In this document: in pieces, positions 2,753 through 61,842 of the stretch
Numbering within the stretch: position 1 is the stretch's first letter
Layout of the letters: the number at the start of each line of letters is the position of its first letter
Source of the DNA: a virus
Length of the DNA: 64,000 nucleotides
Strand: one strand, 5' to 3'
IMG/VR virus record: IMGVR_UViG_3300009093_000009
The notes under the pieces: model-generated
What the model was told of the DNA's origin: nothing
Databases searched by the model: none
Seen by the model: the letters and a program-made list of their open reading frames with translations, nothing else
Program-made: the position numbers and the translations under genes

Positions 2753-2790
2753 GCTATTACTTTCTCCGTCTCTGACGGCTGCATTGATAA

Positions 2791-2808
2791 TGCGACCCAC
2801 GGGTCGCA
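2791..2808. repeat. Palindromic motif copy 1 (TGCGACCC AC GGGTCGCA)
   Basis: Read directly. 38 nt upstream of the ParB-like start at 2752. Confidence 0.95.
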
Positions 2809-2863
2809 TTCGGGACACAAGCATCGCTTCTGACTTACTCCAACTACTGAGAAAAACCGGAAG

Positions 2864-3076
2864 CTACACTCCACAGTATCGACAATAGCCGTGCCGGTTA
2901 TGAATGCACGACTTCACGGGAACGGCAGGAGTATGAAAGACGGCCCTGATGGAATTGCTTTGGGACTGGCGGGCCTGGATGGTGCGCCTGCACCCTTCGC
3001 ATCGTTTAGCGATAGGGCCGTGTTTGGTTACGAATTCTGGATCGGGTCTATCCTGCCCACATTCGGCACAGATCAT
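2864..3076 (-). CDS. Small zinc-ribbon-like protein
   Basis: 70-aa ORF with CAEC...CEGC and a C-terminal CRYC. Confidence 0.5.
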   Translation of the reverse strand: MICAECGQDRPDPEFVTKHGPIAKRCEGCRRTIQARQSQSNSIRAVFHTPAVPVKSCIHNRHGYCRYCGV

Positions 3077-3528
3077 ATCGATACTCCTTCGTAGTGGAGC
3101 GCGGCCACAATATCCGATACAACCTTGGCAGGGTCGGATTGCAGCAGTTCGATGGTGTAGGTAAGCACAAGATAACCGTGCAGCAGCAGGGCGTTGCGCT
3201 TCAGGCAGTCCCGATTGCGCATATTGATGTGGCTATGGTTATCGCCATCGATTTCCACGACAAGCCTTGCTTCGGGCCACGCGGCATCGCAGCGCCAGTT
3301 CGGATAGTTACGAAGGCGTTCGTCTTCCCGAACGTGCCACTGGCCTTCAGGATGCTCCTGGCAGCGCGGCAGCGGCACCTGTGGAGCGACCTGCTTCAGT
3401 CGGGTGATAAGTTCGGCTTCGGCGGCATTGGGCTGTGTGCGTGTCTCCTGCCGCACAATGTCGCGCGGCTGCTCGAAGCCCTGCCTCTTCAGGTAGTCTT
3501 GCAGCGCCTTCACGGTCATCCGTGTCAT
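3073..3528 (-). CDS. DUF559/Vsr-like PD-(D/E)xK endonuclease-domain protein
   Basis: C-terminal RCDAAWPEARLVVEIDGDNHSH...RDCLKRNALLLHGYLVLTYT resembles the DUF559 endonuclease core. Confidence 0.65.
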   Translation of the reverse strand: MTRMTVKALQDYLKRQGFEQPRDIVRQETRTQPNAAEAELITRLKQVAPQVPLPRCQEHPEGQWHVREDERLRNYPNWRCDAAWPEARLVVEIDGDNHSHINMRNRDCLKRNALLLHGYLVLTYTIELLQSDPAKVVSDIVAALHYEGVSI

Positions 3529-3710
3529 GATGGATACCCTATAGTCTGTACCGCATAGCGTCCTGCAATGGCAGGGAGAAGCACGCTATCATATTCTTCC
3601 ATCGTGACGGAAGACTTCCCGGTAAAGTAGACCAGCAGCGCACGGTCCGCCAGCATATCAGGAACCCATCGCCCACGCCGCCATACCAGCTTAAGAGTGT
3701 CTTCGCCCAT
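3525..3710 (-). CDS. Hypothetical protein
   Basis: 61-aa ORF with a 4-nt overlap to the downstream gene. Confidence 0.45.
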   Translation of the reverse strand: MGEDTLKLVWRRGRWVPDMLADRALLVYFTGKSSVTMEEYDSVLLPAIAGRYAVQTIGYPS

Positions 3711-3722
3711 CGTCTTCCTTTC

Positions 3723-5944: not shown

Positions 5945-5947
5945 GGG

Positions 5948-6649
5948 CTAACCTTTCGGTAAGCAACGGAGAACTTCACTTATAGGGATATTCAGGTGTC
6001 TCTCCTTGCCACCTTCATCCCACATCACGATCATTGCCGACATATCGGCGGACATCGCCACCTTTCTAAGCACCAGGCCCGATGGCTTTGCAGGCTCTCT
6101 AGCCTTCGACGCAGGCTTCGTATAATCGGATGGCCTGCTATCGGGGAAGTGCTTCGCCCTGGCCTCCGCCATGATTGGGGCGGTGACTTTGCCAGCATGG
6201 GCCATTGCCTTACCGACATAGACCTTTTCGGAGGCGATCTTGCTGGCCTCCAACGCGCACACCACGATGGCATCTTCCGATAAGTCCGCCACTACGCGGG
6301 CGATGCGCTCCGTCACGGGTGGAAGGCTGTTTTTATCCAGCACGCGATTGACTTCATCGGCCTTGACCATGCGATAGCCCTGCCGTGGCGACCAGTTGAA
6401 CTCCTTCTGGCAGAAAGCGGCCCAGGTGGAGTAGCCTAGCGCCTGATATTCCTTTCTATCGTGGACTTCGGAAATAACATGGTACGCGACGGACAGGTGC
6501 TGCCTGGCAAAGTCAACCTTCCTGCGTACATCTTCGGTGGATGCCGGGACGGAGCCTTCGGCTGGGAATAGATGCTTGTCATCGACAAGAACTAAGTCAT
6601 TGGAAGGCTCCTGGGAGTAGTCTACGCGGCGGGGGCGGGAGGCTGTCAT
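5948..6649 (-). CDS. Hypothetical protein downstream of the Cro-like gene
   Basis: Start taken at MTASRPRR, with an ATGA overlap to the stop of the Cro-like gene. The longer track ORF overlaps the HTH gene out of frame. Confidence 0.6.
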   Translation of the reverse strand: MTASRPRRVDYSQEPSNDLVLVDDKHLFPAEGSVPASTEDVRRKVDFARQHLSVAYHVISEVHDRKEYQALGYSTWAAFCQKEFNWSPRQGYRMVKADEVNRVLDKNSLPPVTERIARVVADLSEDAIVVCALEASKIASEKVYVGKAMAHAGKVTAPIMAEARAKHFPDSRPSDYTKPASKAREPAKPSGLVLRKVAMSADMSAMIVMWDEGGKERHLNIPISEVLRCLPKG

Positions 6650-6876
6650 ACGGCTATCCGTCTCCTTCCGCGATACTGGATCGGAGAAGTGAGCCACTTG
6701 GTATCGGTATTGAATAGCGCCGAGATAGCCCTGACGGTTCGATGCGATTTTCGATGGCCTAATTCTAGCTTGCTGATCAGGCATTTTGTCACGCCTACCC
6801 GATGGGCAAGCTGCTCCTGCGTAAGACCGGCCTCCAGTCTGAGCAGGAAGATATTGTTGCGGACCTTTTGGGGCAT
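6646..6876 (-). CDS. Cro-like XRE-family HTH regulator
   Basis: LRLEAGLTQEQLAHRVGVTKCLISKLELG is a canonical HTH_XRE. Divergent from the CI-like gene. AAGGAGA RBS. Confidence 0.8.
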   Translation of the reverse strand: MPQKVRNNIFLLRLEAGLTQEQLAHRVGVTKCLISKLELGHRKSHRTVRAISALFNTDTKWLTSPIQYRGRRRIAV

Positions 6877-6915
6877 TCGTGCGTCTCCTTGGCGTCTGCG
6901 GATGCATACCGCCTC

Positions 6916-6946
6916 ATTATACCGGAAGATGCGATGAAAGTGTCTA
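6916..6946 (-). promoter_or_regulatory. Candidate leftward early promoter (Cro operon)
   Basis: On the minus strand: TAGACA, 19-nt spacer, TATAAT (perfect -10 at 6916-6921). The -35-like hexamer overlaps a TGTCTA operator-like repeat. The spacer is long. Confidence 0.4.
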
Positions 6947-7000
6947 TTTGTATACAGAAGTGTCTACAAAATGATATTGCACAGGTAGACGGAATTTCAC

Positions 7001-7029
7001 TTGCGATAGCGGGTGTGAGCGGCTATAGT
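7001..7029 (+). promoter_or_regulatory. Candidate rightward promoter for the CI-like repressor
   Basis: TTGCGA, 17-nt spacer, TATAGT, about 70 nt upstream of the TTG start at 7102. GTAGAC-type repeats lie downstream. Confidence 0.5.
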
Positions 7030-7101
7030 GATATAGAATTGTAGCAGACGGTCAACGAGTGTAGACAGCGATCTGTCCCTGGATAGAGAAGGAAGGGATC
7101 A

Positions 7102-7683
7102 TTGGTAAGAGCACAGCGTTTTGGAGCATGGGTCCAGCAATATCGAACCGATCATGATTGGTCGCAGACGGACTGCGCCGATAGGGTGCAGGAGTACCTA
7201 CGTAACAAGAACCCCGATGCAACCTTTACGCGCGGCGGATGGAGCAAGATCGAACTCTCCCCGGATGGCAGGCAGCCTAGGCGCGATAGGGTACTTCATG
7301 TAAGCATCGGGCTGAACCTGCCGCTGCATGTGGTTGAGCAGGCGGCAGGATATGGCCCATCGTCGGTGGACTTGCCATCGTTTAATGCCATGCTTGGCGA
7401 TCAACTGAAGCGGTGCCGCAAGCAGGCAGATATGAGCATCGAGGATGTCGCCGACATTATCGGCGTGGGCGTGACACTGGTGGCCGCGTGGGAGACGGGA
7501 TCGTCTATCCCCGATCTTTATCAGGCGTTTGCCATGAGCAGGCTTTATGGATGCTCTATCGACAGCTTTGTAACCGATGCCACGGAGCAGGCCGTCGTGC
7601 GTATGCGGCCCACTCTGAAGGATGAACTCGCGCAGCTTAGATCGGAACTCTCCGCTATCCGCCAGCTTGTGCAGCGGGAGTAG
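7102..7683 (+). CDS. CI-like repressor with two XRE-type HTH domains
   Basis: Two HTH_XRE-like segments (FGAWVQQYRTDHDWSQTDCADRV; LKRCRKQADMSIEDVADIIGVGVTLVAAWETG). TTG start behind a GAAGGAAGGG RBS. It is the only rightward gene in the early region. Confidence 0.75.
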   Translation: MVRAQRFGAWVQQYRTDHDWSQTDCADRVQEYLRNKNPDATFTRGGWSKIELSPDGRQPRRDRVLHVSIGLNLPLHVVEQAAGYGPSSVDLPSFNAMLGDQLKRCRKQADMSIEDVADIIGVGVTLVAAWETGSSIPDLYQAFAMSRLYGCSIDSFVTDATEQAVVRMRPTLKDELAQLRSELSAIRQLVQRE

Positions 7684-8377
7684 CATCGGGTTCCTTATCC
7701 GATGTCTTCTCGGCAGCGGCCTTGGCCTTGGCGTCCTGAGCCGCTGCATACTGCTGCTTATAATCGGCTATCCAGGCATCGGCATCTGGCTGCGTTGCAG
7801 GGAATACCGGCTTCACATTCAGGCTTCTCTGGTATTTCGCGATGGTCAGGTATTGTTCCGCGGTAGGCTGCGCTGTCGCTGCGTCTGTATGCGGGATACC
7901 AGCGTCTTCCCGATCCTGCCACAGATCGCCTTTATGCCACAGATCGAGCGCCATCCCGAACCGCATCCCCGCATTACGCAGGGCATCGCCGATGCGCTCC
8001 TTCGTGGCGTTCGGCCCGGTCTTGCCCTGCGCATCGCCATAGCCAAGGCGCGTGATACCGCACACGGTTAGCTTAATCCATAGCCCGCCATCCTTATCGA
8101 GCAGCGGCAGACCATCGGCGGTAAGCGCCAGCGGCTCCCAAAACCAGAAGGGATCGACCTGGAGCAGCCTGTCTGTCAAGGCCGCGTGGCCGACATAATC
8201 TAGATGCATCGCGGGCAGCCCGTGATAGCCGCCGCACTCTTTACACTTTCCCTTCTCGGCGTTCGCAGAGAAGGGCTTGGGCAGCTTGCTGATCTCGTTC
8301 TGCCGGAACGGCTCTCGAAGCATTTGCAGCCGTTTGATCTTTTCAATGTCAATCGGTTCGATCTTACCTTCAGCCAT
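7655..8377 (-). CDS. Rad52/Sak-type single-strand annealing protein
   Basis: DYVGHAALTDRLL..DPFWFWEP...GLWIKLTVCGITRLGYGDA...KERIGDALRNAGMRFGMALDLW is the Rad52/22 family core. Start at MAEGK behind a GGAGGAGAAG RBS. Confidence 0.8.
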   Translation of the reverse strand: MAEGKIEPIDIEKIKRLQMLREPFRQNEISKLPKPFSANAEKGKCKECGGYHGLPAMHLDYVGHAALTDRLLQVDPFWFWEPLALTADGLPLLDKDGGLWIKLTVCGITRLGYGDAQGKTGPNATKERIGDALRNAGMRFGMALDLWHKGDLWQDREDAGIPHTDAATAQPTAEQYLTIAKYQRSLNVKPVFPATQPDADAWIADYKQQYAAAQDAKAKAAAEKTSDKEPDATPAAQAGG

Positions 8378-8558
8378 CGATGTCTTCTCCTCCAGAATGC
8401 GACCCACGGGTCACATTATCTTCTTGCTCAATTATCCTCAGCAGTCTTGAACAGGGTGTACAGAGCGGCAGATTAAACATCGTGTCGTAGCGCCCCTGTA
8501 GCTTCCCGCAGGCATGGCAGCGGGTACTCAGCTTCAGACTGATGCCACTGCCATCCAT
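8370..8558 (-). CDS. Small zinc-ribbon protein (62 aa), tentative
   Basis: MDGSGISLKLSTRCHACGK...LCTPCSRLL. The 3' end runs through the palindromic motif. Confidence 0.35.
   Translation of the reverse strand: MDGSGISLKLSTRCHACGKLQGRYDTMFNLPLCTPCSRLLRIIEQEDNVTRGSHSGGEDIDG
8398..8415. repeat. Palindromic motif copy 2
   Basis: TGCGACCCACGGGTCACA, 20 nt upstream of the Rad52-like start at 8377. Confidence 0.95.
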
Positions 8559-13419: not shown

Positions 13420-14047
13420 CGCGCTCTATCCTTTCTCTGCCCTTGTCGGTAATCGCGATAATGTAGCGGCCCGGCTTCTCGATGTCTCCCGTGTCTTTCA
13501 TTTGGCAGAGCCTGGAAGTTAGCCATCGCGACCAATTCATGCAGTCGCCTCGGGAATTCAGCGATAGCTCAAACTCGTTAAAGCTGCCTCTAAACCTCGC
13601 CTTGTATTCACGGTTCACGGCCTCGGAAGTCATCTCTCCTGACTTGCTGTTGTAAAGCAGTTCCAGGATAAATTCCTCGGCCTCTCGCACCGATACCGTG
13701 CTGGAACACTTCCCAGGCTTTGACAACTCCTTAGGTGGCCTGACAGTGATACTGGCTGCGGAATATGCCTCCCGCACAAGCTGCTTCACGGTCTTGTCCA
13801 GCACGGCCTGCGGCTGGCCCTGTACCGGATGTACCTGCTTTCGCCAGTCCTTCAGTATCTGCTCGATCTGCTTGGATGCCGAAGCGGAATATTCCGCGCT
13901 GCGAAACGCCGCCTGCGCGCCTTCCAGGTCATCATCGCGGAAGTGCTGCTGGATGCCCGCCGCGCTCTCTGCCGCAAGCAAGGCGAGCAGGGAAGACAAA
14001 TCGCAGAAGCCATGCACGATGCGCTCTTTGAGTGTTTCACTTTCCAT
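13403..14047 (-). CDS. Hypothetical protein (possible C-terminal winged-helix)
   Basis: 214-aa ORF in the coupled array. Confidence 0.6.
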   Translation of the reverse strand: MESETLKERIVHGFCDLSSLLALLAAESAAGIQQHFRDDDLEGAQAAFRSAEYSASASKQIEQILKDWRKQVHPVQGQPQAVLDKTVKQLVREAYSAASITVRPPKELSKPGKCSSTVSVREAEEFILELLYNSKSGEMTSEAVNREYKARFRGSFNEFELSLNSRGDCMNWSRWLTSRLCQMKDTGDIEKPGRYIIAITDKGRERIERDVIGE

Positions 14048-14408
14048 CGATCTTCTCCGCTTCTTCCAGCGCCTTACGCGCTTCGGCGGCTACCTGCTGA
14101 AGCGTCAGCCCGTCATTTTGATCATTGATACTGATGAGCGAAGGGCCGGTGAACGGTATGCCGAAGTAGGCGCGAACTTCCGGAGGCATGATGGAATATT
14201 CGCTATTAAAGCCTCCCATCCCAAAGGCATATACCGGGTCTGTCTCGTTGGTTAGCCTGTACCATTCGCCATTTCCGGTTTGTTGGCGGTACTGTTCGCA
14301 CAAAGCGCCTTCGATGCAGTAGCAGTTATCTACGCGCAGCCAGGCGACGGCTTTCTGAGTGTCCGATTTCTCGATGGCGGTAAGCGCATCGATCAGGCAT
14401 ACTTTCAT
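14037..14408 (-). CDS. Hypothetical protein
   Basis: Start at MKVCLID directly behind motif + CTGGAGGGAAAC RBS. Confidence 0.6.
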   Translation of the reverse strand: MKVCLIDALTAIEKSDTQKAVAWLRVDNCYCIEGALCEQYRQQTGNGEWYRLTNETDPVYAFGMGGFNSEYSIMPPEVRAYFGIPFTGPSLISINDQNDGLTLQQVAAEARKALEEAEKIDGK

Positions 14409-14422: not shown

Positions 14423-14440
14423 TGCGACCCACGGGTCGCA
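14423..14440. repeat. Palindromic motif copy 3
   Basis: TGCGACCCACGGGTCGCA, 14 nt upstream of the start at 14408. Confidence 0.95.
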
Positions 14441-14441: not shown

Positions 14442-14546
14442 TCATCGACTTAGCACATCGAGCGTGCAGAACCAGTAGATCGTCCCGAAGATTGCGATGC
14501 CGCAGAGGAATATCAGGATCAGATCGGCGATGTCCTTGCGTGTCAT
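14442..14546 (-). CDS. Small membrane peptide (34 aa), tentative
   Basis: MTRKDIADLILIFLCGIAIFGTIYWFCTLDVLSR behind a GGGAGTAAG RBS. TAATG overlap with the HTH ORF. Confidence 0.3.
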   Translation of the reverse strand: MTRKDIADLILIFLCGIAIFGTIYWFCTLDVLSR

Positions 14547-14689
14547 TACCACTTACTCCCTTGGTATGCAATGATATGCTTATCGAAATTAGCAAGCCAT
14601 CTTCGGATTGTAGACTGAGACTTACCTGACTGTTTAGAGATTTTCTTCACAGATACTCCTGCCACGTATAAGTCGCGGGCTGCAATCAT
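14546..14689 (-). CDS. Small HTH protein (47 aa), tentative
   Basis: Hand translation gives MIAARDLYVAGVSVKKISKQSGKSQSTIRRWLANF..., a resolvase/terminase-type HTH. Below the ORF-track cutoff. Confidence 0.4.
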   Translation of the reverse strand: MIAARDLYVAGVSVKKISKQSGKSQSTIRRWLANFDKHIIAYQGSKW

Positions 14690-14702
14690 CGAGCATATCT
14701 TC

Positions 14703-14939
14703 TTAAATGATGTCGTTCGCATCGGGCCGCTCCTTCATCTTATCGATTTTGCCCTGTACTTCCAGGGCTTTCTGCAAGTACAGGGCGCGCTCGTTAAGAG
14801 CCTGGGCCAGCTTGCGTACCTTCTGACTCTCCTGATCGATGGCCTTCCATCGCTGTGCTATTTCAGCGCATACCATGTTCTGAGCAAGGCTATCTGCTAC
14901 CGCTTCATCGAATGCGGCTTTAAGTTGTTCACGGTTCAT
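14703..14939 (-). CDS. Small coiled-coil protein
   Basis: Start at MNREQLKA with an ATGA overlap to the upstream stop. Confidence 0.5.
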   Translation of the reverse strand: MNREQLKAAFDEAVADSLAQNMVCAEIAQRWKAIDQESQKVRKLAQALNERALYLQKALEVQGKIDKMKERPDANDII

Positions 14940-17342: not shown

Positions 17343-18401
17343 TTAGTTTCGCTTTGCGTGTGCCATCAGGTTCCCGAAGACGTCGGTCTTCTTCTTCCGC
17401 AAGGCTCCATCGAGCAGGGATGCTGTGCGATAGACGCCGCCGCGAACTGGGAACAGGTCGGGCCTGTGATCCACGGCTTCGACCGCGCTATTGTACGCTT
17501 CCCACGATGAATGATCGCCGGTATGCCCCGAGCCGCTTATCCAGAGTTCCTCCAGGGCTTCCTTGCGCTTCAGGTACCGCGCTACGACGCTATCGGCCAT
17601 CTTCGCCTCCGGCGTCCAGCTATCGTGCTTCGTGGGATCGGGCGCGACCGCATCGACGACAAGGCGCTGGAACAGGTCGGGAGTAAGGTAGGTCTGCCGC
17701 AGCCGCTCGTACGCTTCCGCCAGCAGCGTATACCGCTGGATGACATCGCCCCAAAGCGTCTGAGCCGCATCGAGTAATGCCTGCTCCGCACTCTCCGTGT
17801 GACGGACCATGATCTGATCGGATACGCCAGCGTTCTCAGCCGCGCCTAATGTGTTGGCGCACACGACACGAACCGCTGTCAGGGCGACTAAGATGCCGCG
17901 CCTGCCGTTGTGATTGTTGGCGACGAGAATATACGGGCTGATGCGGTCGGAGTGGCCTTCAAAGGCTTCCTGCACAGCCGAGGGGAACTTGGCGATTTCC
18001 AGCTTAAGCAGCATCCAGGCATCGGCTCCATCGCGCAGAACGCCCGCCGTTTCGATAGCCGCCGTCTCCGCGTCGAGCAGCGGGACCAGGATGCGGAAAG
18101 CATCGGTGTTCTGAACGACGTGGTATCGATGCTCGACTACGCCCAGTTCCTTCTGCGTATCGGGCCTGTAGGTCACGTAGGCTCCGGTAGGGATGTGCTT
18201 CGTCTCGCCGAAGTTTGCCAGCGACGGCACGACCAGATGCGTCTGCCGCTTCTCCACAGTGTAATCTAGCTTCGCCAGGGTCAGCGCCTGCTCGTAGCCC
18301 GGAGCCATCGGGAGCACGATACCCTTCTGATGCCAGGGCGTCTCCCGTACCGAGATCATCGATGCGCCGCCAGTCTCATCCATTTCCAATTCATGTGCCA
18401 T
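17343..18401 (-). CDS. DUF932 (phage/plasmid-like TIGR03299-type) protein
   Basis: MAHELEMDETG...VRETPWHQKG...ALTLAKLDYTVEKR start and overall size are typical of DUF932. Sits behind motif + AGAAGGAGAG RBS. Confidence 0.75.
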   Translation of the reverse strand: MAHELEMDETGGASMISVRETPWHQKGIVLPMAPGYEQALTLAKLDYTVEKRQTHLVVPSLANFGETKHIPTGAYVTYRPDTQKELGVVEHRYHVVQNTDAFRILVPLLDAETAAIETAGVLRDGADAWMLLKLEIAKFPSAVQEAFEGHSDRISPYILVANNHNGRRGILVALTAVRVVCANTLGAAENAGVSDQIMVRHTESAEQALLDAAQTLWGDVIQRYTLLAEAYERLRQTYLTPDLFQRLVVDAVAPDPTKHDSWTPEAKMADSVVARYLKRKEALEELWISGSGHTGDHSSWEAYNSAVEAVDHRPDLFPVRGGVYRTASLLDGALRKKKTDVFGNLMAHAKRN

Positions 18402-18418: not shown

Positions 18419-18436
18419 TGTGACCCACGGGTCGCA
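18419..18436. repeat. Palindromic motif copy 4
   Basis: TGTGACCCACGGGTCGCA, 17 nt upstream of the DUF932 start at 18401. Confidence 0.95.
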
Positions 18437-19812: not shown

Positions 19813-19851
19813 TGCAATACTCCTTGCCGCCTATCGGTCGGGCGAAAGAAT

Positions 19852-19874
19852 GGCCCGGTGATAATCACCGGGCC
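19852..19874. terminator. Perfect 10-bp hairpin (GGCCCGGTGA taa TCACCGGGCC)
   Basis: Intergenic position inside the leftward arm. Only weak T-runs on either side. Confidence 0.4.
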
Positions 19875-19996
19875 TGGTTACACTCACATTTGATTTTTCT
19901 ACTTACGCGACTGCCTGCCTTGCTCGTATCCGAGAAACCAGGCGAACAGCAGCACGCCAAACAGTCCGATGACCGCCATCCATTCCGCGCCATGTA

Positions 19997-22047: not shown

Positions 22048-22128
22048 TGATGCGGTTCTCCTTCTATGTCATGGCCCATCGCTATCCACGATGGGCCTTA
22101 TTGTCCGAACAGATTATCAAGCGCCTTG

Positions 22129-24543: not shown

Positions 24544-24556
24544 AGGAAATGCTCCT

Positions 24557-24580
24557 GCCTGCTACCAATTGGTAGCAGGC
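24557..24580. repeat. 24-bp perfect palindrome GCCTGCTACCAATTGGTAGCAGGC
   Basis: Read directly. Intercistronic, immediately 5' of the RBS of the 24082-24543 gene. Confidence 0.9.
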
Positions 24581-24602
24581 ATTAGGCGTGCGTAGTGGGT
24601 GG

Positions 24603-25103
24603 TTAGCGGCAGAAGGACGGAATTTTGTTGAAACCCTTACGGCGAAGTTTGGAGGTCTTGGCATCCGCCAGGTAGCTTGCCAGCAGCAAGGCGGTTTCAA
24701 CGAATACCCTCAGGTGTGGCACACACTCGTTGACGGTATCGAGGCATCCGGCAATAGTGTCTCGTTCGACGGCGGTAAACTCTCGCTTGCCGCCGTCCTC
24801 AGCGATGTAACCCTGGGTGACGAGCAGGCTGAACCGCATGTGAGCGATCATGGCATTATCGATGATCGATTGGATGCGTGCAGCGTTGTACCGTTCGGTC
24901 TTTTCTTCACCGCTATCCGTCTCAAAATCTAGCTCAAACGTGCCCATCGGAGCAGCGATCTTCGCCCACTTCTCCGTTCCGCATCCAGTGCGGTTAAGTA
25001 CATCGCAGATAGCGGTTTCTGCGATGAGCGCATCGTGAGCGATAGCATGTAGGTTATCGCAAAATGCGGCGAATTGATCGATGCGGTTTTCAGTGCGTAG
25101 CAT
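24603..25103 (-). CDS. Hypothetical protein, first gene of the long leftward arm
   Basis: 166-aa ORF preceded by a structured leader of about 235 nt. Confidence 0.55.
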   Translation of the reverse strand: MLRTENRIDQFAAFCDNLHAIAHDALIAETAICDVLNRTGCGTEKWAKIAAPMGTFELDFETDSGEEKTERYNAARIQSIIDNAMIAHMRFSLLVTQGYIAEDGGKREFTAVERDTIAGCLDTVNECVPHLRVFVETALLLASYLADAKTSKLRRKGFNKIPSFCR

Positions 25104-25338
25104 TGGTCGGTCCCTTTCGGTTGTGACTGGTTCGGCAGGCTGCTTGCAACCTGTGCAATGGCATCAGGTGAGCCTGCCGAATTCTGCGGCTATCCGTCGG
25201 TTTCGGCCCGTCCGGGTATGCCGAGCGTCGTCTTGCAGCATTCTCCGACGACGCCCATCTACCGGAGTCATGTCCCTATCGCCGATAGCCAAAAATGAAA
25301 AAAGGCTTTCCCGATAATCCGAAATTGAAAAAGAATAA

Positions 25339-25356
25339 TGTGACCCGTGGGTCGCA
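25339..25356. repeat. Palindromic motif copy 5
   Basis: TGTGACCCGTGGGTCGCA, at the head of the 235-nt leader of the long leftward arm. Confidence 0.95.
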
Positions 25357-25375
25357 TTATTACCCGATGCAGCCT

Positions 25376-25845
25376 CGCGCACGCGCGCGTATAGCTATAA
25401 GCACAGCCCTGATCCTGACGGAGAGCGATACCGGAGAATAAAGAAGAACATCGGACGACAGCACCTCCACGATGCATCTGAGCAGTTAGTACAAATTATC
25501 GAATAGTGGAAAAGCCTTGATGGAAACATCGAAACAAATTTGCTTTTCATGGATTGGATACAACGTGTCTACTAGCAAGCCCAGTAGTAGACCGCATCAA
25601 AGTCTCGATGATCCTGCGATATACTGACGCTCTATCACCAGTTTGTACAAACTCATGGATTTTCATCGTGGAGGTGCTGTCTATGGGCGCTGCACTTACC
25701 CCGATAAGCCTAGAGTAAGCACAAGACTGTATTCTATAGTAAGTATCTCTCGATAACGCGCCTGCGTGCGCGCGTACATGTGTACCTGCGCGTCTACACG
25801 CGTATATCGCGTGTGCGTGCGTACCTATATACGCGCGTGCGCGCG
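25376..25845. repeat. Non-coding segment of about 470 bp bounded by imperfect (CG/TA)-rich inverted repeats, with a nested 18-bp perfect inverted repeat
   Basis: Outer arms: 25376-25394 CGCGCACGCGCGCGTATAG and 25825-25845 CTATATACGCGCGTGCGCGCG. Inner arms: 25457-25474 GACAGCACCTCCACGATG and 25664-25681 (exact reverse complement). Hairpin at 25567-25592. RY tract at 25756-25846. Confidence 0.85.
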
Positions 25846-25927
25846 AGAGCAGACCGCCCATAATCACCGAGAGCACGATGGGAACCTATCGACTAGCGAC
25901 AACTTTGGCGCATAGGGTACAATTCTG

Positions 25928-25957
25928 TTGACAAAATGCCAAAAAGCATCGGATACT
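25928..25957 (+). promoter_or_regulatory. Candidate sigma70-type promoter of the rightward arm
   Basis: TTGACA, 18-nt spacer, GATACT, 35 nt upstream of the ATG at 25993. Confidence 0.55.
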
Positions 25958-25992
25958 GATACCAGACCATCAAACTGTCCGGAGCCATCCCG

Positions 25993-33085: not shown

Positions 33086-33115
33086 TTGACAAACGTATAA
33101 TTATGCGATTATACT
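33086..33115 (+). promoter_or_regulatory. Strong sigma70-type promoter
   Basis: TTGACA (33086-33091), 18-nt spacer, TATACT (33110-33115). Confidence 0.6.
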
Positions 33116-33283
33116 GAATTCGGCACTACCTCCAAGCCCTTTCGCGGCGTCTGCTGTTTCTCTTCCGGCAGACGCCGCGATAAATCATAATTTCATAGCT
33201 GTCGATGGGTTTTCCCATATGTCGCGGATACGCGGCTGGTCTGTCGGAAAATCCATCGACTAAGAAGCCAAATCGAGCATCAT

Positions 33284-33345
33284 GCCGGTTTCGTTTGAAA
33301 GTGTGACCCGTGGGTCGCATTTTAGCGAAACCGGCTTTTTCTTTT
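33284..33345 (+). terminator. Intrinsic-terminator-like nested hairpin containing the palindromic motif
   Basis: GCCGGTTTCG ... (TGTGACCCGTGGGTCGCA) ... CGAAACCGGC followed by TTTTTCTTTT. Confidence 0.6.
33302..33319. repeat. Palindromic motif copy 6
   Basis: TGTGACCCGTGGGTCGCA, nested in the terminator-like hairpin, 41 nt upstream of the protease start. Confidence 0.95.
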
Positions 33346-35450: not shown

Positions 35451-35495
35451 GCGACATATCTGTCGCTTATGCGACAGTTTAGGAGAAAATGAAAC

Positions 35496-36695: not shown

Positions 36696-36698
36696 ATC

Positions 36699-36726
36699 GC
36701 TAAGGGTACGGAAATGTACCCTTAGC
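36699..36726 (+). terminator. 11-bp hairpin after the capsid gene
   Basis: GCTAAGGGTAC ggaaat GTACCCTTAGC starts 4 nt after the stop codon. No T-tract, so it may be a stabiliser or a partial terminator. Confidence 0.45.
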
Positions 36727-36747
36727 TCCAGATAAGGAGCACTTGGA

Positions 36748-37220: not shown

Positions 37221-37730
37221 ATGACTGCATCCGGATGTGCTGTTCGTCGCTCAGACAGGACGATACCTATGTTCAATCTCGCTCCTGCCCAGATCGTCGC
37301 CGTTATTGTGTGTGTTTGTGGGGCTATCGGCGCGGGGGTGGGAGCCTGGATAACCGCCCGGTACTCCCTGCTCTCGAAGCTGATGGAAACCATGAAGGGC
37401 TTCGCGGATACCCAGGCATCGGACGCGCACTACCTTCGCGATAAGGTCATCGGCATAGAAGCGGTCCAGCACACGCTTCAGACAGAACTCAATGCGGTTA
37501 ACGTTAAGCTGGTGGAGACGCAGATACAGCTTATCGACACAAAGAATAAGCTGACCATCGTGGAAGCCGAAAACGCACAGCTTCGCTTGCAGAATGGCAT
37601 CCAGGCCGATGAAATCGAAGCCCTGAAGAAAGAGAATAGGCGGCTCTCTTCGGAGCACACGGAAATGAAAACGGCCATGAGCCGCCTTCAGTCGGTCGAT
37701 GGAATCGACAAAAACGGGCTGATCGTGTGA
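37221..37730 (+). CDS. N-terminally membrane-anchored coiled-coil protein (Rz/i-spanin-like architecture)
   Basis: TM segment IVAVIVCVCGAIGAGVGAWI followed by about 120 aa of heptad-like sequence. The start may be the ATG at 37269. Confidence 0.5.
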   Translation: MTASGCAVRRSDRTIPMFNLAPAQIVAVIVCVCGAIGAGVGAWITARYSLLSKLMETMKGFADTQASDAHYLRDKVIGIEAVQHTLQTELNAVNVKLVETQIQLIDTKNKLTIVEAENAQLRLQNGIQADEIEALKKENRRLSSEHTEMKTAMSRLQSVDGIDKNGLIV

Positions 37731-37743
37731 CCCATGGGTCACA
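37726..37743. repeat. Palindromic motif copy 7
   Basis: TGTGACCCATGGGTCACA (perfect). Overlaps the stop of the 37221-37730 gene, 14 nt upstream of the start at 37758. Confidence 0.95.
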
Positions 37744-40987: not shown

Positions 40988-43513
40988 ATGAAGCGATTTT
41001 TAAGATTGTGGCTGCTGGTTGTAGCTTCCATCGTGATGAGCCTGGGCAGCGCCCCCGGCCTTGCCGCCATTACGCTCGTAACGCACGCCAATGCTACCGG
41101 AAATATAAATACAGTCACCAGCGCATCGGCCAATACCACGGGCGCTAACCTGATTGTAATAAGCATTTCCTGGTATATCGGCGGCACGGCCCCTGTTCTT
41201 ACCGATAATAAATCGAACACCTGGACGGCCCTTACTGAGCACGATGCCAACATTATATCGTCGGTCCGCATGTACTACTGCGTCGGAGGCACGGTAGGGA
41301 CTGGGCACACCTTTACCGCAACGGGAACCGGGAGCGCGCCCGCTCTCTGCATGACCTGCTATAGCGGCGCAGCCAGTTCCCCGCTCGATACTCAGAATGG
41401 CGCGGGTACATCGGCATCAGGCGCAACTCTCAATACTGGCAGCGTCACTCCCGCAGCCAATGGCTCCTTAATTGTCTCCGGTTTATGTTGGGATACATCG
41501 GGCCAGACAGCGGCTAATAGCCTGGGTTGGTCTATCTCCGATCAGAGCGATGGCGTCAGCGGTGTAAGCATGGGCGCATCGATGGCCTACCTGATCCAGA
41601 CGACTGCCTCCGCGGTTAATCTGCAATGGTCCCTTACCACGGGCGGGAACTTGGCCGCGAACGTGGCGGTGTTTAAGGCCGCCACTACAGGATGGGTGCT
41701 CGCTTACGATAGCGGCGATATGTCGCTGCTAACCAGCGGCGATCCGCTTCCTACCTATGGCGGACTTTCTCTCACCGAAACGCTCAATACACTGGCTCCT
41801 ACCAAACAGTACGTCATCAACGATGCGGGGGACGGTCTTGGCGTGGGCTTGCGGCGCACTGCCGATGGCGGGCAGATGGAGGCGAACCGCCTGGTGCTCG
41901 ATGTGGGCGGAACGGCGCACCGGCAGGCCAAGATCGAAATTACCTGGAAGGCATCCGCGCTCTCATCCACGGCCACTCTTCCCAACTGGACGGCGGTTTG
42001 GGGCATATCCAATAGCGGCGCTTTTGGCTCCGGTCATATGTATCAGGGCGGCTATGTCGCATCGTCCACAGGCCCTCTATCGCAGGCGGAGTGGGGCGCT
42101 TTTGCCGATACGGCTGCCGGGACCACGGGCAGCGGAGCCGAAAGCTATACCTTAAACGCCTCCGCGCAGACTGATTTCCAGATCAATAACAGCGGCGCGT
42201 TTGGGATGACCACCACCTTCAATGGCAATCCCCACGCCGATACCATCTCGGATGGCCTGGTGCCGACTACGGGCCATGGCGCTATCTTGATTACGGGATC
42301 ATCGGGGGCGTCGCTTAGCCATCTGGTGATAACCCGGCTGAAAATATCCTATGATGACTACATAGACACGACGCTTCGATTAACGGCGGCTGCGGGCTAC
42401 CCCACCGTGACCGGCACGCATATCGCCGTGGCTGGACCCACGAAGACCGGAGGCGTGGGCGCGAGCGTATCCTATGCCTGGTACTATACGACCACCTACA
42501 ACGGCACTGGAACGGCGATCAGCGGCCAGAGCGGGACGATCACCAACGCGGCGACGGCGGTTCCAGACCTGGCCTGGGATGTCCCCAGTGGGCAGCAGAA
42601 CATCCCGCTCTGGCTCTACTGCACGCTCTCCGATGGAACGACCACCTACGATGCGATAGGCCCGTGGGATACCACGCACTTTGCAATCGGCGATACCGGA
42701 AGCTACATTCCCGCCGCCGCGCCCGTGCCTGCCGTGCCTGACAATACCGCCCTGGGGGCGCTCTTCGACTGGAGCAAGGTGCCATCAGGCAAGAAGGTGA
42801 TCTTCGCGCAGATTGGCGACAGTATCACCTTTAATTCGGCATCGGCCTTCACTTCCGACTTTGCCGCGCTCGATGGCGCTAGCAAGCATCTGGCAATCGA
42901 TGCGGGCCATAGCAGCAGCTTTATCGCCGACTGGCTCCCGACTGCGGCAGCGACAGGGACAGGGCAGAGCATCCTTTCGGGAGAGAGCACTCGCAACAAC
43001 TATAACGGCCTGAAGCACTACATCGATGCAAATAAATCCACGGGCGATAAGATCGTGATCTCGATCATGCTTGGCACCAACAATGGCGGCAACAGCACGG
43101 CGGAAATGGCGGACTTCGACACACTCATCGCCGCGCTGCAAAGCGATTACGCCGACTACAACGGAGTGGGCACAGGCTCGCCGCCGATAGTCATCCACGA
43201 TCAGATATATCGCTGGCAGACGGTAAACAGCAATCAGCTAAACCAGTTCCAGCATGAGACGCACTACCATGGCATCGTGGATGCCTCCTCCAGCGATAAA
43301 CTGATCCCTGGCAGCAGGCTCACGCGCCTGTTCTTCATGGCGCACGCGGAACTCTCCGACCTGTTCCTGCATCCCTCCATTTCCACGGGCGCGGATGACT
43401 GGGCGCGGTTCGTGATGGCGCAGCAGCTACAGGCGGCAGTAAGCCTTTATATCACCACCGTGCAGCGCAGGCATACGAGAAGCCCCCGCACCGGAACGCG
43501 CACGTCTAACTAG
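40988..43513 (+). CDS. Large secreted protein with C-terminal SGNH/GDSL hydrolase domain
   Basis: Signal peptide MKRFLRLWLLVVASIVMSLGSAPGLA. SGNH blocks IFAQIGDSITFN (I), IMLGTNNG (III), DLFLHPS (V). Confidence 0.7.
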   Translation: MKRFLRLWLLVVASIVMSLGSAPGLAAITLVTHANATGNINTVTSASANTTGANLIVISISWYIGGTAPVLTDNKSNTWTALTEHDANIISSVRMYYCVGGTVGTGHTFTATGTGSAPALCMTCYSGAASSPLDTQNGAGTSASGATLNTGSVTPAANGSLIVSGLCWDTSGQTAANSLGWSISDQSDGVSGVSMGASMAYLIQTTASAVNLQWSLTTGGNLAANVAVFKAATTGWVLAYDSGDMSLLTSGDPLPTYGGLSLTETLNTLAPTKQYVINDAGDGLGVGLRRTADGGQMEANRLVLDVGGTAHRQAKIEITWKASALSSTATLPNWTAVWGISNSGAFGSGHMYQGGYVASSTGPLSQAEWGAFADTAAGTTGSGAESYTLNASAQTDFQINNSGAFGMTTTFNGNPHADTISDGLVPTTGHGAILITGSSGASLSHLVITRLKISYDDYIDTTLRLTAAAGYPTVTGTHIAVAGPTKTGGVGASVSYAWYYTTTYNGTGTAISGQSGTITNAATAVPDLAWDVPSGQQNIPLWLYCTLSDGTTTYDAIGPWDTTHFAIGDTGSYIPAAAPVPAVPDNTALGALFDWSKVPSGKKVIFAQIGDSITFNSASAFTSDFAALDGASKHLAIDAGHSSSFIADWLPTAAATGTGQSILSGESTRNNYNGLKHYIDANKSTGDKIVISIMLGTNNGGNSTAEMADFDTLIAALQSDYADYNGVGTGSPPIVIHDQIYRWQTVNSNQLNQFQHETHYHGIVDASSSDKLIPGSRLTRLFFMAHAELSDLFLHPSISTGADDWARFVMAQQLQAAVSLYITTVQRRHTRSPRTGTRTSN

Positions 43514-43528
43514 GAGCACACCCCCACG

Positions 43529-44818
43529 ATGAAAAGACTTTTGATATTTTTCGCGCTTCTGGCGATGGCGGTCACATCCCAGGCGCAGGTTACTCTAAAG
43601 CAGAGCGCAACCGCTCGAAAGCTGGTCTTCCTGATGATCGACAGCGCCGATCACATCAGTGGGAAGACCGGACTTACCGTCACGGTAACGCTTTCCAAGA
43701 ATGGCGCGGCCTTTGCCTCCCCGGCGGGAACCGTATCTGAAATCGGGAGCGGCTGGTACGCCCTGACCGCTACCTCGGCGGATACCGGGACGCTTGGAAG
43801 CCTGGTGCTCCATGCCACCGCGACGGGAGCCGATGTCTCCGACCACGAATACAACGTCGTCGCGCCCGATCCCGATAGCGCGACGGTGCTTCTCAACGGC
43901 AATGGAGACGCGCTGCTTGCGTCCCTGGCCGTCGAGTACGGCACGGCCCAGGCAGGGACATCCACGACCCTCCAGCTTCGCGCGGGCGCTCCTTCCTACG
44001 ACCTCTCAGGCCAGTACATCTTCCTGCAATCGGGAACGGGAGCCAAGGCCAGCGTCGCCACTCTGATAACGGCCTACAATACCACCACGAAGACCGCTAC
44101 CGTAGCCGCGTGGCCCAATGGCACGCCCGACAGCACAACGGTCTATCAGATCAGGCCGCAGATGGCCTTCCTGGTGCAAGAGCATACCGAGAACGCCGCC
44201 GATGTGATGGATGCGCTGAATGCCACGAACACCCTCTCTCCCTCGATAGGCAGCATCTTCACCCTGCTTTCCGGCGTTGCAGCGCCGTGGTCCAGCCTGA
44301 CATCCAGCTACACCACGGCGGGAACCTTCGGCAAGCTGCTTAACGATAATCTGAACGCGACCATCAGCAGCCGCATGGCGACATTTACTCTTCCCACCAA
44401 CTTCTCTGCCCTGGCGATCACCAGTGGTGGCGCGGTAACGGCATCGGGCATTACCGGCATCCGGCCTTACATGGTCTACATCGATAACCAGCCTGCGGTC
44501 AAGGCCAGCCTGACGTTCCAGGCAAACGATGTGGGCGTGGTAGTTCAGGAGACGCTTCGCTATCCGAATGGCACTCCCATCGACCTGACAGGCAAGACCG
44601 TAAACTTCCAGCTTGTGCCGATAACAGGCGGCTCTCCGGTAGTGAACTCCGCAGCCACCATTGCATTTGCGACGGGCGGCGTGGCATACTATACACTGAC
44701 AGGTACGGATTTGGCGACAGTGGGAACCTACTATCGCCGGTGGAAAGTAACCGATGGGTCAGGAAATATCGTGACCTATCCGAACACGAACAGCCTGACT
44801 GTCGTGATCCACAACTAA
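43529..44818 (+). CDS. Secreted protein with Ig-like/fibre-like domains
   Basis: Signal peptide MKRLLIFFALLAMAVTSQA. N-terminal ...SGKTGLTVTVTLSKNGAAF...GWYALTATSADT... and a C-terminal beta-rich domain resemble phage fibre modules. Confidence 0.6.
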   Translation: MKRLLIFFALLAMAVTSQAQVTLKQSATARKLVFLMIDSADHISGKTGLTVTVTLSKNGAAFASPAGTVSEIGSGWYALTATSADTGTLGSLVLHATATGADVSDHEYNVVAPDPDSATVLLNGNGDALLASLAVEYGTAQAGTSTTLQLRAGAPSYDLSGQYIFLQSGTGAKASVATLITAYNTTTKTATVAAWPNGTPDSTTVYQIRPQMAFLVQEHTENAADVMDALNATNTLSPSIGSIFTLLSGVAAPWSSLTSSYTTAGTFGKLLNDNLNATISSRMATFTLPTNFSALAITSGGAVTASGITGIRPYMVYIDNQPAVKASLTFQANDVGVVVQETLRYPNGTPIDLTGKTVNFQLVPITGGSPVVNSAATIAFATGGVAYYTLTGTDLATVGTYYRRWKVTDGSGNIVTYPNTNSLTVVIHN

Positions 44819-44827: not shown

Positions 44828-44845
44828 TGCGACCCAAGGGTCACA
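44828..44845. repeat. Palindromic motif copy 8
   Basis: TGCGACCCAAGGGTCACA, 18 nt upstream of the start at 44864. Confidence 0.9.
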
Positions 44846-44863: not shown

Positions 44864-45310
44864 ATGAGCACGTTCGATGATCTCTCGACGGACGGTGGAA
44901 AACTCCGCTGGTTCTTAAACGACCGGGATAGCGAAGCTCCTTTCTTCTCCGATCCCGATCTGGAAGGGCTTCGCTTTGAAGCGAACTCTTTTGTAGTTCC
45001 ACTTACCGATCTTCCAGCCGCCGCGCTTTACTACGCGGCGCACATCGGATGGCTTATCAAGGCGGGACTTCGTGCCGATGAAAGCAAGAAGCAGAAGATC
45101 GTCGTTCTGATGAAGGACACGCACGTCACCTATCTCGATGCCGTGGCCCAGGCGCACCAATACTTGATGCTGTCCAAGAGAGCATCCGCAAGCAGTCTGG
45201 ATGGCGGTATCGGCGTGGCCGTACCCACGCTCGATACGCATACGCCAAGGCTCGATACCGACTGCAACCCGTTTATTCGACATCGTGACCTTCTGGAAGA
45301 AATCTTCTGA
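44864..45310 (+). CDS. Putative head-tail joining protein
   Basis: 148-aa ORF behind motif + GGAGAAG RBS. First of the genes preceding the tail module. Confidence 0.5.
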   Translation: MSTFDDLSTDGGKLRWFLNDRDSEAPFFSDPDLEGLRFEANSFVVPLTDLPAAALYYAAHIGWLIKAGLRADESKKQKIVVLMKDTHVTYLDAVAQAHQYLMLSKRASASSLDGGIGVAVPTLDTHTPRLDTDCNPFIRHRDLLEEIF

Positions 45311-48375: not shown

Positions 48376-48434
48376 AAGCGGTTTCGCAGAGTGTGACCCA
48401 CGGGTCGCATTTTAGCGAAACCGCTTTTCTTTTT
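48376..48434 (+). terminator. Second copy of the nested terminator-like hairpin containing the palindromic motif
   Basis: AAGCGGTTTCGC ... (TGTGACCCACGGGTCGCA) ... GCGAAACCGCTT followed by TTCTTTTT. The 3' half GGGTCGCATTTTAGCGAAACCG is identical to the 33.3-kb copy. Confidence 0.6.
48392..48409. repeat. Palindromic motif copy 9
   Basis: TGTGACCCACGGGTCGCA, nested in the terminator-like hairpin, 42 nt upstream of the major tail gene. Confidence 0.95.
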
Positions 48435-48451
48435 GGAAGGATAACCAACCG

Positions 48452-49375: not shown

Positions 49376-49428
49376 GATACACATGTGGACACTTTGGTAT
49401 AACAGTGTCATAATAGGAACAGGCTTTT

Positions 49429-49463
49429 GCCGATGGGAACCCACATCCCATCGGCTTCTTTAT
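49429..49463 (+). terminator. Rho-independent terminator after the major tail gene
   Basis: GCCGATGGGA acccaca TCCCATCGGC followed by TTCTTTAT. Confidence 0.65.
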
Positions 49464-49474
49464 AAGGAGAGAAC

Positions 49475-60895: not shown

Positions 60896-61283
60896 GGTCG
60901 AGCGGTTCTTCCTGGCACAGTGACAGCAGAAACGCCTCCAAATGTGGGCAGGCAGGTAATGTACTATGCCAGGAGTTCCCATCGTGTGACGCCTGGTAGA
61001 TCAGGTCGTTCAGAGTGTTCTCGGTGAATGCTAGGACAAAATCAGGTCCATTGCCTTCCTGCTTACTGAACTTCGGAAACTCGATGATCCAGAAGCAGCC
61101 ATACGGATCACACTCGTAGCATCGATACTCCGTTAGGCACGTTTTTATCTTATAGATGCCATAGGCTGTGTCGAAGTATCGAGAGCAGAGCACCTGCTTC
61201 TGTGCGTGCATGACACGATGGCGTTCGAAGTCTGTGAGCATCTTTTCTTCGACAGAAGCAGATCGATATTCTTTACGCGTCAT
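60774..61283 (-). CDS. Hypothetical cargo protein
   Basis: 169-aa ORF in AT-richer DNA. The last ~40 codons overlap the convergent fibre gene and look non-protein-like. Confidence 0.45.
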   Translation of the reverse strand: MTRKEYRSASVEEKMLTDFERHRVMHAQKQVLCSRYFDTAYGIYKIKTCLTEYRCYECDPYGCFWIIEFPKFSKQEGNGPDFVLAFTENTLNDLIYQASHDGNSWHSTLPACPHLEAFLLSLCQEEPLDLTAPSCRYPVLVGISAHHFPASKLLRIRLPAPQLREPASW

Positions 61284-61584
61284 TCTTCATTAACTCCGCG
61301 TCATGCATCGGTCGCGTTTCTTTTGGGATATATGTAAACGAAGCCACAAGGTTTCCTTGACGATTTACGACAATCCTGTTCCGATTGTCTTGAATGTATC
61401 CATACTCCTCCATTTTAATGATGCTCTTATGAAGATCATCTGGATGTAAGGAAAGTGTCAGTATCGTTGCTGGCATTCCGATGGTATTGGTAACTGTCGT
61501 GTAGTTGAACTCCAGGGCTATGCCATCGAGAAATGCGTCCAGGTCTTCCGGCACGCTTTCGAGCAGGGTTTCTCTTAGTGTCAT
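61273..61584 (-). CDS. Hypothetical cargo protein
   Basis: 103-aa ORF coupled to its neighbours. Confidence 0.5.
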   Translation of the reverse strand: MTLRETLLESVPEDLDAFLDGIALEFNYTTVTNTIGMPATILTLSLHPDDLHKSIIKMEEYGYIQDNRNRIVVNRQGNLVASFTYIPKETRPMHDAELMKNDA

Positions 61585-61808
61585 GGCTTTTCCACCTGCA
61601 TTATCTTTGATAGCTTGTCTTCCCAGGCTGCCAATTCCGAGATCACGCGACGATAGTCCGACATCTCTTCTTCGGTAAGTTCCGCGAACTCGAATTCTCT
61701 TCTGGGCCAGGGATTATCTTTAACATAGTGCGCGCTTTCAGGATCATCGTATGGGTTTTTACCTTCTACCCACATCCCATCTTCGCCCACATGAAAGTAT
61801 ATTTTCAT
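61581..61808 (-). CDS. Hypothetical cargo protein
   Basis: 75-aa ORF behind motif + AAGGAGAGAGA RBS. Confidence 0.5.
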   Translation of the reverse strand: MKIYFHVGEDGMWVEGKNPYDDPESAHYVKDNPWPRREFEFAELTEEEMSDYRRVISELAAWEDKLSKIMQVEKP

Positions 61809-61824
61809 TCTCTCTCCTTAAAAA

Positions 61825-61842
61825 TGCGACCCACGGGTCACA
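61825..61842. repeat. Palindromic motif copy 10
   Basis: TGCGACCCACGGGTCACA, 16 nt upstream of the start at 61808 and abutting the stop of the peptidase gene. Confidence 0.95.

Follow-up and report, generated by a model that had tools for sequence, protein, structure and literature searches.

The question raised by IMG/VR virus record IMGVR_UViG_3300009093_000009 is what reads a perfect palindrome that a phage repeats ten times along its genome. The stretch of DNA analysed here, 64,000 nucleotides long and called the window throughout, comprises almost the whole of a metagenomic phage contig (Logan SRR6056503_32970, 64,039 bp), and the repeated element is an 18-mer, TGYGACCC-NN-GGGTCRCA (TGYGACCCNNGGGTCRCA). 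From sequence comparison we propose tentatively, at somewhat less than even confidence, that the ten palindromes form a dispersed, evenly spaced array of loading sites, of the parS/sopC kind, for an orphan phage protein of the ParB family.

Counting in the window gave exactly 10 copies of the 18-mer against 0.00 expected from dinucleotide shuffles, at the very positions listed by an earlier, sequence-only reading (Table 1), and allowing up to three mismatches added no degenerate copy. The family is thus without decayed members, except for one 19-nt variant, which was found where that reading had placed it, inside a coding sequence (CDS). All ten 18-mers lie outside called genes (P ~4e-10). Nine fall between two genes of the same direction, with 14-42 nt left to the following start codon (for copy 1 the distance takes in a correction of the ParB-like gene start to 2752), and one is in a divergent control region and precedes no gene, which agrees with the placement first described. 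The Shine-Dalgarno (SD) sequence is outside the 18-mer and in six cases 0-9 nt from it. The smaller details were also borne out: the AATG...CATT extension is complete in 4 copies, copies 8398 and 14423 have a common flank (described as CTGGAGG and found as ttctGGAGG) while flanks are otherwise not conserved, and the centre is GT in six of the seven sense-oriented asymmetric copies. Solitary half-sites occur at chance frequency only, and the dyad is therefore the functional unit; for the same reason a single half-site signal resembling a DNA uptake sequence was dropped as a candidate. Activator sites of the P2 Ogr type (TGT-N12-ACA) were rejected on position, since the copies are too near the start codons. 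A conserved sigma-70 promoter directly upstream of the copies or adjoining them was not found in the window.

Related phages were found through capsid homologues 40-58% identical to that of the window; their genomes are partial or near-complete and mostly without early regions, and the motif trait was read from the retrieved stretches. A repeated perfect palindrome stands in the same kind of position in six of the seven relatives, each with a different sequence (Table 1), and 11 kb of the seventh (L167) held no palindrome family. Behind L028, L165 and L166 stand the contigs SRR29078157_148267, SRR21686419_202684 and SRR33230254_108298. Positions are partly syntenic across the relatives, namely directly after the capsid gene and upstream of the protease gene, and no decayed copy was seen in any of seven phages. 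The palindrome array is a trait of a phage clade, with a site sequence private to each phage. The sequence-only reading had named the element start-associated, a mark of the first gene of modules, and had named the same motif at syntenic gene starts of related phages as a check. The partial synteny answers to this, whereas the sequence differs in each phage and the copies are not tied to starts: they are as likely to touch the preceding stop codon as the following SD, and several are inside genes. The earlier name holds within the window, and 'intercistronic' fits better across the clade. In L167 a promoter-like element, GAYATAATAGTCC, occurs three times (1415, 8958 and 9463); one copy is preceded at 17 nt by a consensus TTGACA and one directly follows the capsid gene.

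A wholly different palindrome in each related phage, at partly syntenic positions, might also be left by a selfish or recombinational element, either spreading into gaps or hairpin apices in the manner of repetitive extragenic palindromes (REP) and miniature inverted-repeat transposable elements, or serving as short homology for module exchange. Copies at the apices of otherwise unrelated hairpins, copies inside genes and the encoded annealing protein would suit such an origin. We think it very improbable, given that seven phages show no decayed copies, that the even spacing described below argues for selection, and that no transposase or gene resembling a REP-associated tyrosine transposase was seen. 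Moreover, in an alignment of the proteases a copy within a protease linker does not appear to be a clean insertion when set against a close relative, and the related phages have no common motif that could mediate exchange; a role as module-boundary recombination site, one of those first put forward, found no support. Least probable of all we rate mimicry of a host repeat, whether a copied host REP-type sequence or a hairpin decoy of a host CRISPR repeat, like the RNA anti-CRISPRs (Racrs), that titrates a host RNA-binding protein. The motifs are phage-specific hairpins and hence possibly host-specific ones, and some copies are downstream of promoter-like sequences, as is the case for solitary repeat units (PMC10651486). 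Exact-motif scans nevertheless gave at least 120 matches in genome contigs, of which those listed are single copies in unrelated genomes and taxa, in about the number expected by chance and with no arrays or multi-copy genome, and 26 loci in IMG/VR, all chance-level singletons unrelated to the window. In addition, no conserved handle stands beside the hairpin, and 10-22 copies at gene boundaries are unlike known Racrs.

The features of the sites themselves point to a symmetric protein that reads double-stranded DNA. The consensus sequences of the window and its relatives are perfect Watson-Crick palindromes with no G·U pair. At arm position 3 each arm has C or T regardless of the other (2 CC, 1 TT and 7 mixed among the ten copies), as expected of two separately read half-sites and not of a base pair, and the outer TG/CA pair is invariant despite this variation. 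The centre is purine-pyrimidine in 9 of the 10 window copies (P = 3-4e-5), and the odd centres of the relatives are without exception A or T and take either orientation with respect to transcription, which amounts to one A:T base-pair state comparable to the S centre of the KorB operator. The copies are also evenly spaced. In the window the mean interval is ~6.4 kb with a coefficient of variation (CV) of 0.42 (P = 0.0005 for a random choice of gaps, 0.007 for uniform placement), and a 27-kb stretch of the relative with 22 copies has a CV of 0.23 (P ~1e-4); two further stretches gave P = 0.02 and 0.012. In the 22-copy relative a copy inside a CDS fills what would otherwise be an interval of double length. 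On balance, protein binding of some kind to the 18-mers as DNA appears slightly favoured.

Perfect palindromes free of G·U, with stems extended by their flanks, a tolerated change of loop length, kilobase-scale even spacing and equivalence of the two strands might, on the other hand, be expected of a hairpin or cruciform in single-stranded DNA. Such structures would act as evenly placed priming signals for a lagging or displaced strand, or as N4-like hairpin promoters, read by a phage enzyme, and the phage does encode a single-stranded DNA-binding protein (SSB), a superfamily 1 (SF1) helicase and an annealing protein although no polymerase is recognisable among the window proteins. However, position 3 would be mismatched in 7 of the 10 DNA hairpins, the window has no recognisable primase, HUH or RNA polymerase gene, a palindromic promoter would fire both ways and an array of this sort is without precedent; we regard this explanation as improbable.

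A known protein with similar demands on its site is SopB, the partition protein of plasmid F and of the linear plasmid-prophage N15. The sopC site of F is TGGGACC-AC-GGTCCCA, and the rules for SopB are a purine-pyrimidine centre and an arm position 3 that is the most variable and is not required (PMC3177203). The N15 genome was found to carry four dispersed copies of GTGCGACC-NN-GGTCGCAC (0.07 expected), with GCGACC in the half-sites, and these are its published centromere sites IR1-4 (PMC7205306), and in which each half-site departs from F sopC at a single base (PMC2910045), the two falling in one class, TG-S-GACC. Adding one C to the N15 half-site gives that of the window, TGYGACC(C), which is one base off F sopC, and the tolerant position 3 and the centre rule are common to the window and the SopB sites. 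The core of one relative's motif, TGGACC-AT-GGTCCA in L028, belongs to the same class. The first view that the motif could not be linked to a known regulator was thus overturned by the match to the N15 and F sites, and among the roles then proposed an operator set for a dimeric regulator has become the best-supported candidate, the binding being predicted from the half-site match and from the ParB-fold gene next to copy 1. As in the window, the N15 sites are dispersed over a phage genome, mostly intergenic (three are, one of them annotated as a terminator stem-loop, and the fourth is inside repA), with a ParB-family protein encoded in the same genome. Unlike N15, the window has ten evenly spaced copies instead of four, and neither a SopA/ParA gene nor a protelomerase is present.

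The candidate binder is the product of that gene (1790-2752), directly downstream of copy 1. It matches the PHROG ParB-like family and Pfam HTH_ParB (HTH, helix-turn-helix), and by sequence the PDB entries of Noc and ParB. Its AlphaFold model (pLDDT 84) superposes on Noc, CTP-bound ParB, Spo0J and KorB over the N-terminal and HTH domains, and Noc, chromosomal ParB and KorB resemble the protein more closely than SopB does. A ParB_N protein with a GRRR box is also encoded by the 22-copy relative, in a gene that itself contains a copy of the motif. A 56% identical homologue of the window protein (P0019) is from a metagenome-assembled genome of Bryobacteraceae according to NCBI, which is a weak hint that the host may be an acidobacterium. 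Two of the contigs with ParB homologues (L169 and L170) have one GTTCCGCGCGGAAC-like palindrome each.

Under our proposal, the phage ParB-family HTH protein would bind or load at each palindrome, with one HTH of a dimer reading each arm as a half-site TG-Y-GACC(C) across the purine-pyrimidine centre. Given the even spacing of ~6.4 kb, protein that spreads or slides outwards from each site could reach every part of the genome. The place of the sites in intercistronic gaps would follow from the compactness of the genome, which offers an invariant 18-mer hardly any other position free of cost. We infer both the binding by the ParB-like protein and its effect, which may be genome-wide silencing or regulation as with KorB and Noc, or plasmid-type maintenance as in N15. 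When transcribed, the palindrome would fold as a hairpin, and some copies appear to have acquired a second use as part of terminator or stabiliser hairpins. In its fullest form, the proposal would have an orphan ParB-type protein, possibly a CTP-gated clamp, load at a tiling array and coat the whole chromosome for silencing, insulation or protection, with a fast-diversifying private code in each phage and palindromes that double as operon-punctuating RNA hairpins; as a complete scheme we consider this rather unlikely.

Several observations weigh against the ParB-type array. The window site is 18 bp long (8+2+8) and the SopB site 16 bp (7+2+7), the difference being a C:G pair added to each arm next to the centre, and a rigid SopB-like dimer would need adjustment to fit it. 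Between the 1790-2752 protein and N15 SopB, BLASTP and hhalign found no significant similarity beyond the superfamily, and the GERR box is degenerate (GFTR). No ParA is encoded in the 64 kb, where the sole Walker A gene is that of the UvrD-like helicase, so that a canonical partition system can be set aside. No repeated palindrome was seen within 5-13 kb on contigs that encode ParB homologues of 55-56% identity, and the palindrome trait follows the structural-gene clade, a ParB-family gene having been identified in one relative, that with 22 copies. The remaining points concern the form of the sites. Flanks beyond the core are complementary with arbitrary sequence at 14 sites where 6.1 are expected (1 of 5000 permutations), copies 33302 and 48392 cap hairpins of 24-25 bp that run into U-runs, the after-capsid copies of L028 and L030 are in terminator-like folds with U-runs behind a TACAAT box, and in L028 the half-sites are spaced by 3, 4 or 5 nt. 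The flank complementarity, the terminator-hairpin apices and the variants in centre length favour a hairpin, in RNA or single-stranded DNA.

These last points lead to an RNA explanation, in which a 7-9 bp intercistronic hairpin between stop codon and SD would act as a processing or stability element, as an attenuator or as the target of an RNA-binding regulator; the sequence-only reading had listed a translational or processing signal of this sort. Its placement would be apt, with nine of ten copies in co-directional transcribed gaps and six close to the SD. Most other co-directional gaps hold a stable hairpin of their own that is unrelated to the 18-mer, often directly before the SD (for example 19813-19898, 22048-22128, 24544-24602, 35451-35495, 36696-36747 and 49376-49474), so that stop, hairpin, SD and start in series appear to be a general design of this phage. 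The stems are lengthened by flanks of arbitrary sequence, and copies 33302 and 48392 share a unit of ~60 nt in which the base of the stem has undergone a compensatory change. The hairpin of copy 33302 follows a strong promoter at a distance of 186 nt, as in a regulated leader, and in two relatives the promoter-like TACAAT precedes the after-capsid copy. The variable centre lengths and the preference for GT in the sense orientation would also fit.

Set against this, the sense strand has no excess of G·U over A·C (10 versus 13), position 3 gives a C·A mismatch in 2-3 copies while the outer TG/CA pair is still invariant, and the cores show neither covariation at position 3 nor compensatory variation of any kind, the sequence being conserved and not the pairing. 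The centres of the relatives are only A or T and in both orientations, perfect copies with extended stems occur inside genes, and the even spacing, which includes the gap-filling copy within a CDS, has no obvious RNA rationale. The form of an intrinsic terminator, a G+C-rich hairpin and a U-run, is clear at 33284-33345 and 48376-48436 and partial at 61825 and 44828, and is absent from the other window copies and from the A/T-rich motifs of the relatives; most copies of the relatives have no U-run, and Rfam gave no match. An RNA element is the main rival explanation and a serious one, though rather unlikely in our view, and we read the hairpin features as a secondary use of a hairpin that is unavoidable in the transcript. 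The region 33086-33345, a promoter followed by a terminator-like hairpin just before the protease, scaffold and capsid genes, has a layout like the lambda PR'-tR' leader and by analogy suggests late-gene control by antitermination.

The DNA-level evidence for a ParB-type reader would serve equally for a dimeric regulator outside the ParB family, with the palindromes as an operator array, akin to stoperators, that blocks or tunes the transcription of operons. Candidates are a 58-aa HTH protein (14546-14722) and a 233-aa HTH-like protein (5948-6649); the longest palindrome is in the divergent control region, a copy precedes the gene related to 5948-6649 in the 22-copy relative, and the 17-bp dyads of Cluster O mycobacteriophages have been so interpreted (PMC4351075). 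We consider such a regulator unlikely, as the SopB half-site match, the tolerant position and the centre rule point to a ParB-type reader, and no conserved sigma-70 promoter stands beside the copies. The pair of CI/Cro-like proteins are also unlikely binders, because their own intergenic region uses different repeats, and they evidently act on other operators. Between the Cro-like (6646-6876, -) and CI-like (7102-7683, +) genes, 6877-7101 carries repeated GTGTCTAC / GTAGAC boxes that do not resemble the 18-mer and are likely immunity operators.

Arrays of this kind are known from the N15 IR sites, the KorB operators and the Cluster O repeats. Twelve OB sites are present in RK2, and Noc is not known to have a ParA partner. 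For KorB of RK2, a ParB-family CTP-dependent sliding clamp and regulator acts at a distance from dispersed short palindromes (PMC11790492). Many dispersed palindromes on one replicon thus serve one ParB-family protein at the OB sites and at the Noc sites of Bacillus, as is proposed for the window, and the restriction of the OB centre to S parallels the W centres in the motifs of the relatives. The OB sequence is nevertheless other than the 18-mer, the OB sites are placed relative to promoters and not in stop-to-SD gaps, and, unlike in the KorB system, no KorA-like partner was identified in the window.

Among phages, the Cluster O mycobacteriophages have >30 invariant 17-bp dyads, TGTTCGG-NNN-CCGAACA, across a siphovirus genome; the centre varies in both orientations, the copies are mostly intergenic with about one third in coding regions, a dimeric DNA-binding protein was predicted as binder with the function left unexplained, and these phages also encode ParB-domain proteins (PMC4351075). 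Cluster O differs from the window in sequence, host phylum and geometry (7+3+7), and even spacing is not reported for it. Stoperators and start-associated sequences (SAS), to which the palindromes had first been compared, are genome-wide short asymmetric repeats, oriented with transcription, in the short gaps of long operons. In Cluster A stoperators are repressor sites that silence transcription, and in Cluster K SAS are short-gap repeats that include the ribosome-binding site (PMC4351075). The 18-mer differs from stoperators in being a perfect dyad, while the CI/Cro-like region has repeats of another kind, and from SAS in being a perfect dyad that excludes the SD, with copies in the relatives not tied to starts. 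The comparison is therefore apt as an analogy, although the closest published phage analogues are N15 IR1-4 and the Cluster O dyads (PMC4351075). New in the window and its clade are the 18-bp geometry, the ten-fold even tiling, the lack of ParA, the stop-to-SD placement and the turnover of site sequence between related phages.

Repeated phage dyads such as those of Cluster O are so far unexplained, and ParB-family genes are common in phages without an assigned role; the window links the two. With at least 7 natural specificity variants, that is, different palindromes at partly syntenic positions, the clade offers an unusually good system in which to follow co-change of protein and site. If an orphan ParB does coat the genome, this would be an architectural and regulatory system spanning the genome of a kind not described for tailed phages; should the RNA explanation prove right, the palindromes would supply a naturally occurring collection of intercistronic insulator hairpins defined by sequence, which would also be useful.

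Table 1. Copies of the 18-mer, associated features of the window, and the palindromes of related phages.
Feature	Position	Strand	Description
Copy 1	2791..2808		TGCGACCCACGGGTCGCA; 38 nt upstream of leftward ParB-like gene start
Copy 2	8398..8415		20 nt upstream of leftward single-strand-annealing protein gene (7655-8377)
Copy 3	14423..14440		14 nt upstream of leftward 123-aa gene (14037-14408)
Copy 4	18419..18436		17 nt upstream of leftward DUF932 gene (17343-18401)
Copy 5	25334..25361 (core 25339-25356)		13-nt arms AATAATGTGACCC/GGGTCGCATTATT; in 890-bp divergent region between gene arms; precedes no gene
Copy 6	33284..33345 (core 33302-33319)	+	Apex of ~24-bp hairpin, then TTTTTCTTTT; 41 nt upstream of S49 protease gene
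Copy 7	37726..37743		5-nt overlap with stop codon of 37269-37730; 14 nt upstream of first lysis-block gene
Copy 8	44828..44845		Centre AA, the only one that is not purine-pyrimidine; 9 nt after stop codon, 18 nt before gene 44864-45310
Copy 9	48376..48436 (core 48392-48409)	+	Apex of ~25-bp hairpin with T-run; 42 nt upstream of putative major tail gene
Copy 10	61825..61842		Abuts stop codon of 61843-62667; 16 nt upstream of gene 61581-61808
19-nt variant	26439-26457		TGTGACCCAATGGGTCGCA; 3-nt centre; inside CDS 25993-26793
Sigma-70-like promoter	33086..33115	+	TTGACA-18-TATACT, 11/12 matches; reads into copy-6 hairpin
Orphan ParB/Noc/KorB-family protein, 320 aa	1790..2752	-	N-terminal ParB domain and HTH DNA-binding domain; candidate binder
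L028			TGTGGACCATGGTCCACA; 8 copies in 12.9 kb
L030			TGTACC-WWW-GGTACA; 3 copies in 6.5 kb
L029			CTAACCAAWTTGGTTAG; 4 copies in 10 kb
IMGVR_UViG_3300048819_000038			AGTAACCAAWTTGGTTACT; 22 copies in ~59 kb
L165			GGAAGCAWTGCTTCC; 12 copies in 21 kb
L166			GGTGAACTATAGTTCACC; 4 copies in 21 kb

The called gene map consists of a leftward arm, from ~25.1 kb down to position 1 and resuming at 64.0-61.3 kb, and a rightward arm at 26.0-60.9 kb, with 11.5% of the window non-coding. Family matches upheld the gene identities first assigned by eye, namely the ParB-like protein, the Rad52-like protein (a single-strand annealing protein), DUF932, the head protease (S49) and the lysis block, the last through its amidase. 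The window further encodes the UvrD-like helicase, a DUF559 endonuclease, the SSB, the small HTH protein, the CI/Cro-like HTH pair, a methyltransferase, a terminase and a Mu-type portal; most early proteins have no family match, and no integrase was recognised. INPHARED gave 0 matches (megablast with 20 kb and tblastn with the capsid protein), no close relative was found in IMG/VR, capsid-based scans were fruitless in both genome and metagenome contigs, and Rfam and tRNA scans of the window were empty.

The 890-bp divergent region around copy 5 (25103-25993) contains no convincing gene. It has alternating purine-pyrimidine tracts (CGCGCACGCGCGCG-like) at 25376, 25757 and 25832, an 18-nt perfect inverted repeat whose arms are 189 nt apart (25457-25474 / 25664-25681), GTCTAC/GTAGAC boxes and a promoter at 25928-25957, and may be an origin, a control region or a structured RNA. 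The first rightward gene, 25993-26793, encodes a protein with no family match in which a PD-(D/E)xK-like motif (DGIDFWV...IDVKYRE) and a C-terminal Cys cluster were seen by eye, and is followed by a gene for a fusion of a ParB_N-like domain and a methyltransferase (27187-28581).

A second palindrome, CATCGATG, is by far the most over-represented 8-mer palindrome of the window, with 30 copies against 0.9 expected (e.g. at 2356, 8375, 18357, 26463, 33356, 36089, 46590 and 63071); ATCGAT itself occurs 80 times against 11.6 expected. Twenty-five of the 30 copies are within called genes, 20 of them in one codon phase (xxC-ATC-GAT-Gxx) on either strand, and the remaining five fall between genes or at their edges. 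Several copies extend over a start codon, four are within 65 nt of an 18-mer copy, and one is 5 nt downstream of the 19-nt variant in 25993-26793. It is not enriched in the related phages; the phage methyltransferase may act on it, or it may be a DNA-level signal of another sort.

In the middle of the structural region, 40988-44818 encodes two large proteins (841 and 429 aa) with signal-peptide-like starts, which come after a pectate-lyase-like beta-helix protein, an unusual place between the lysis and neck genes.

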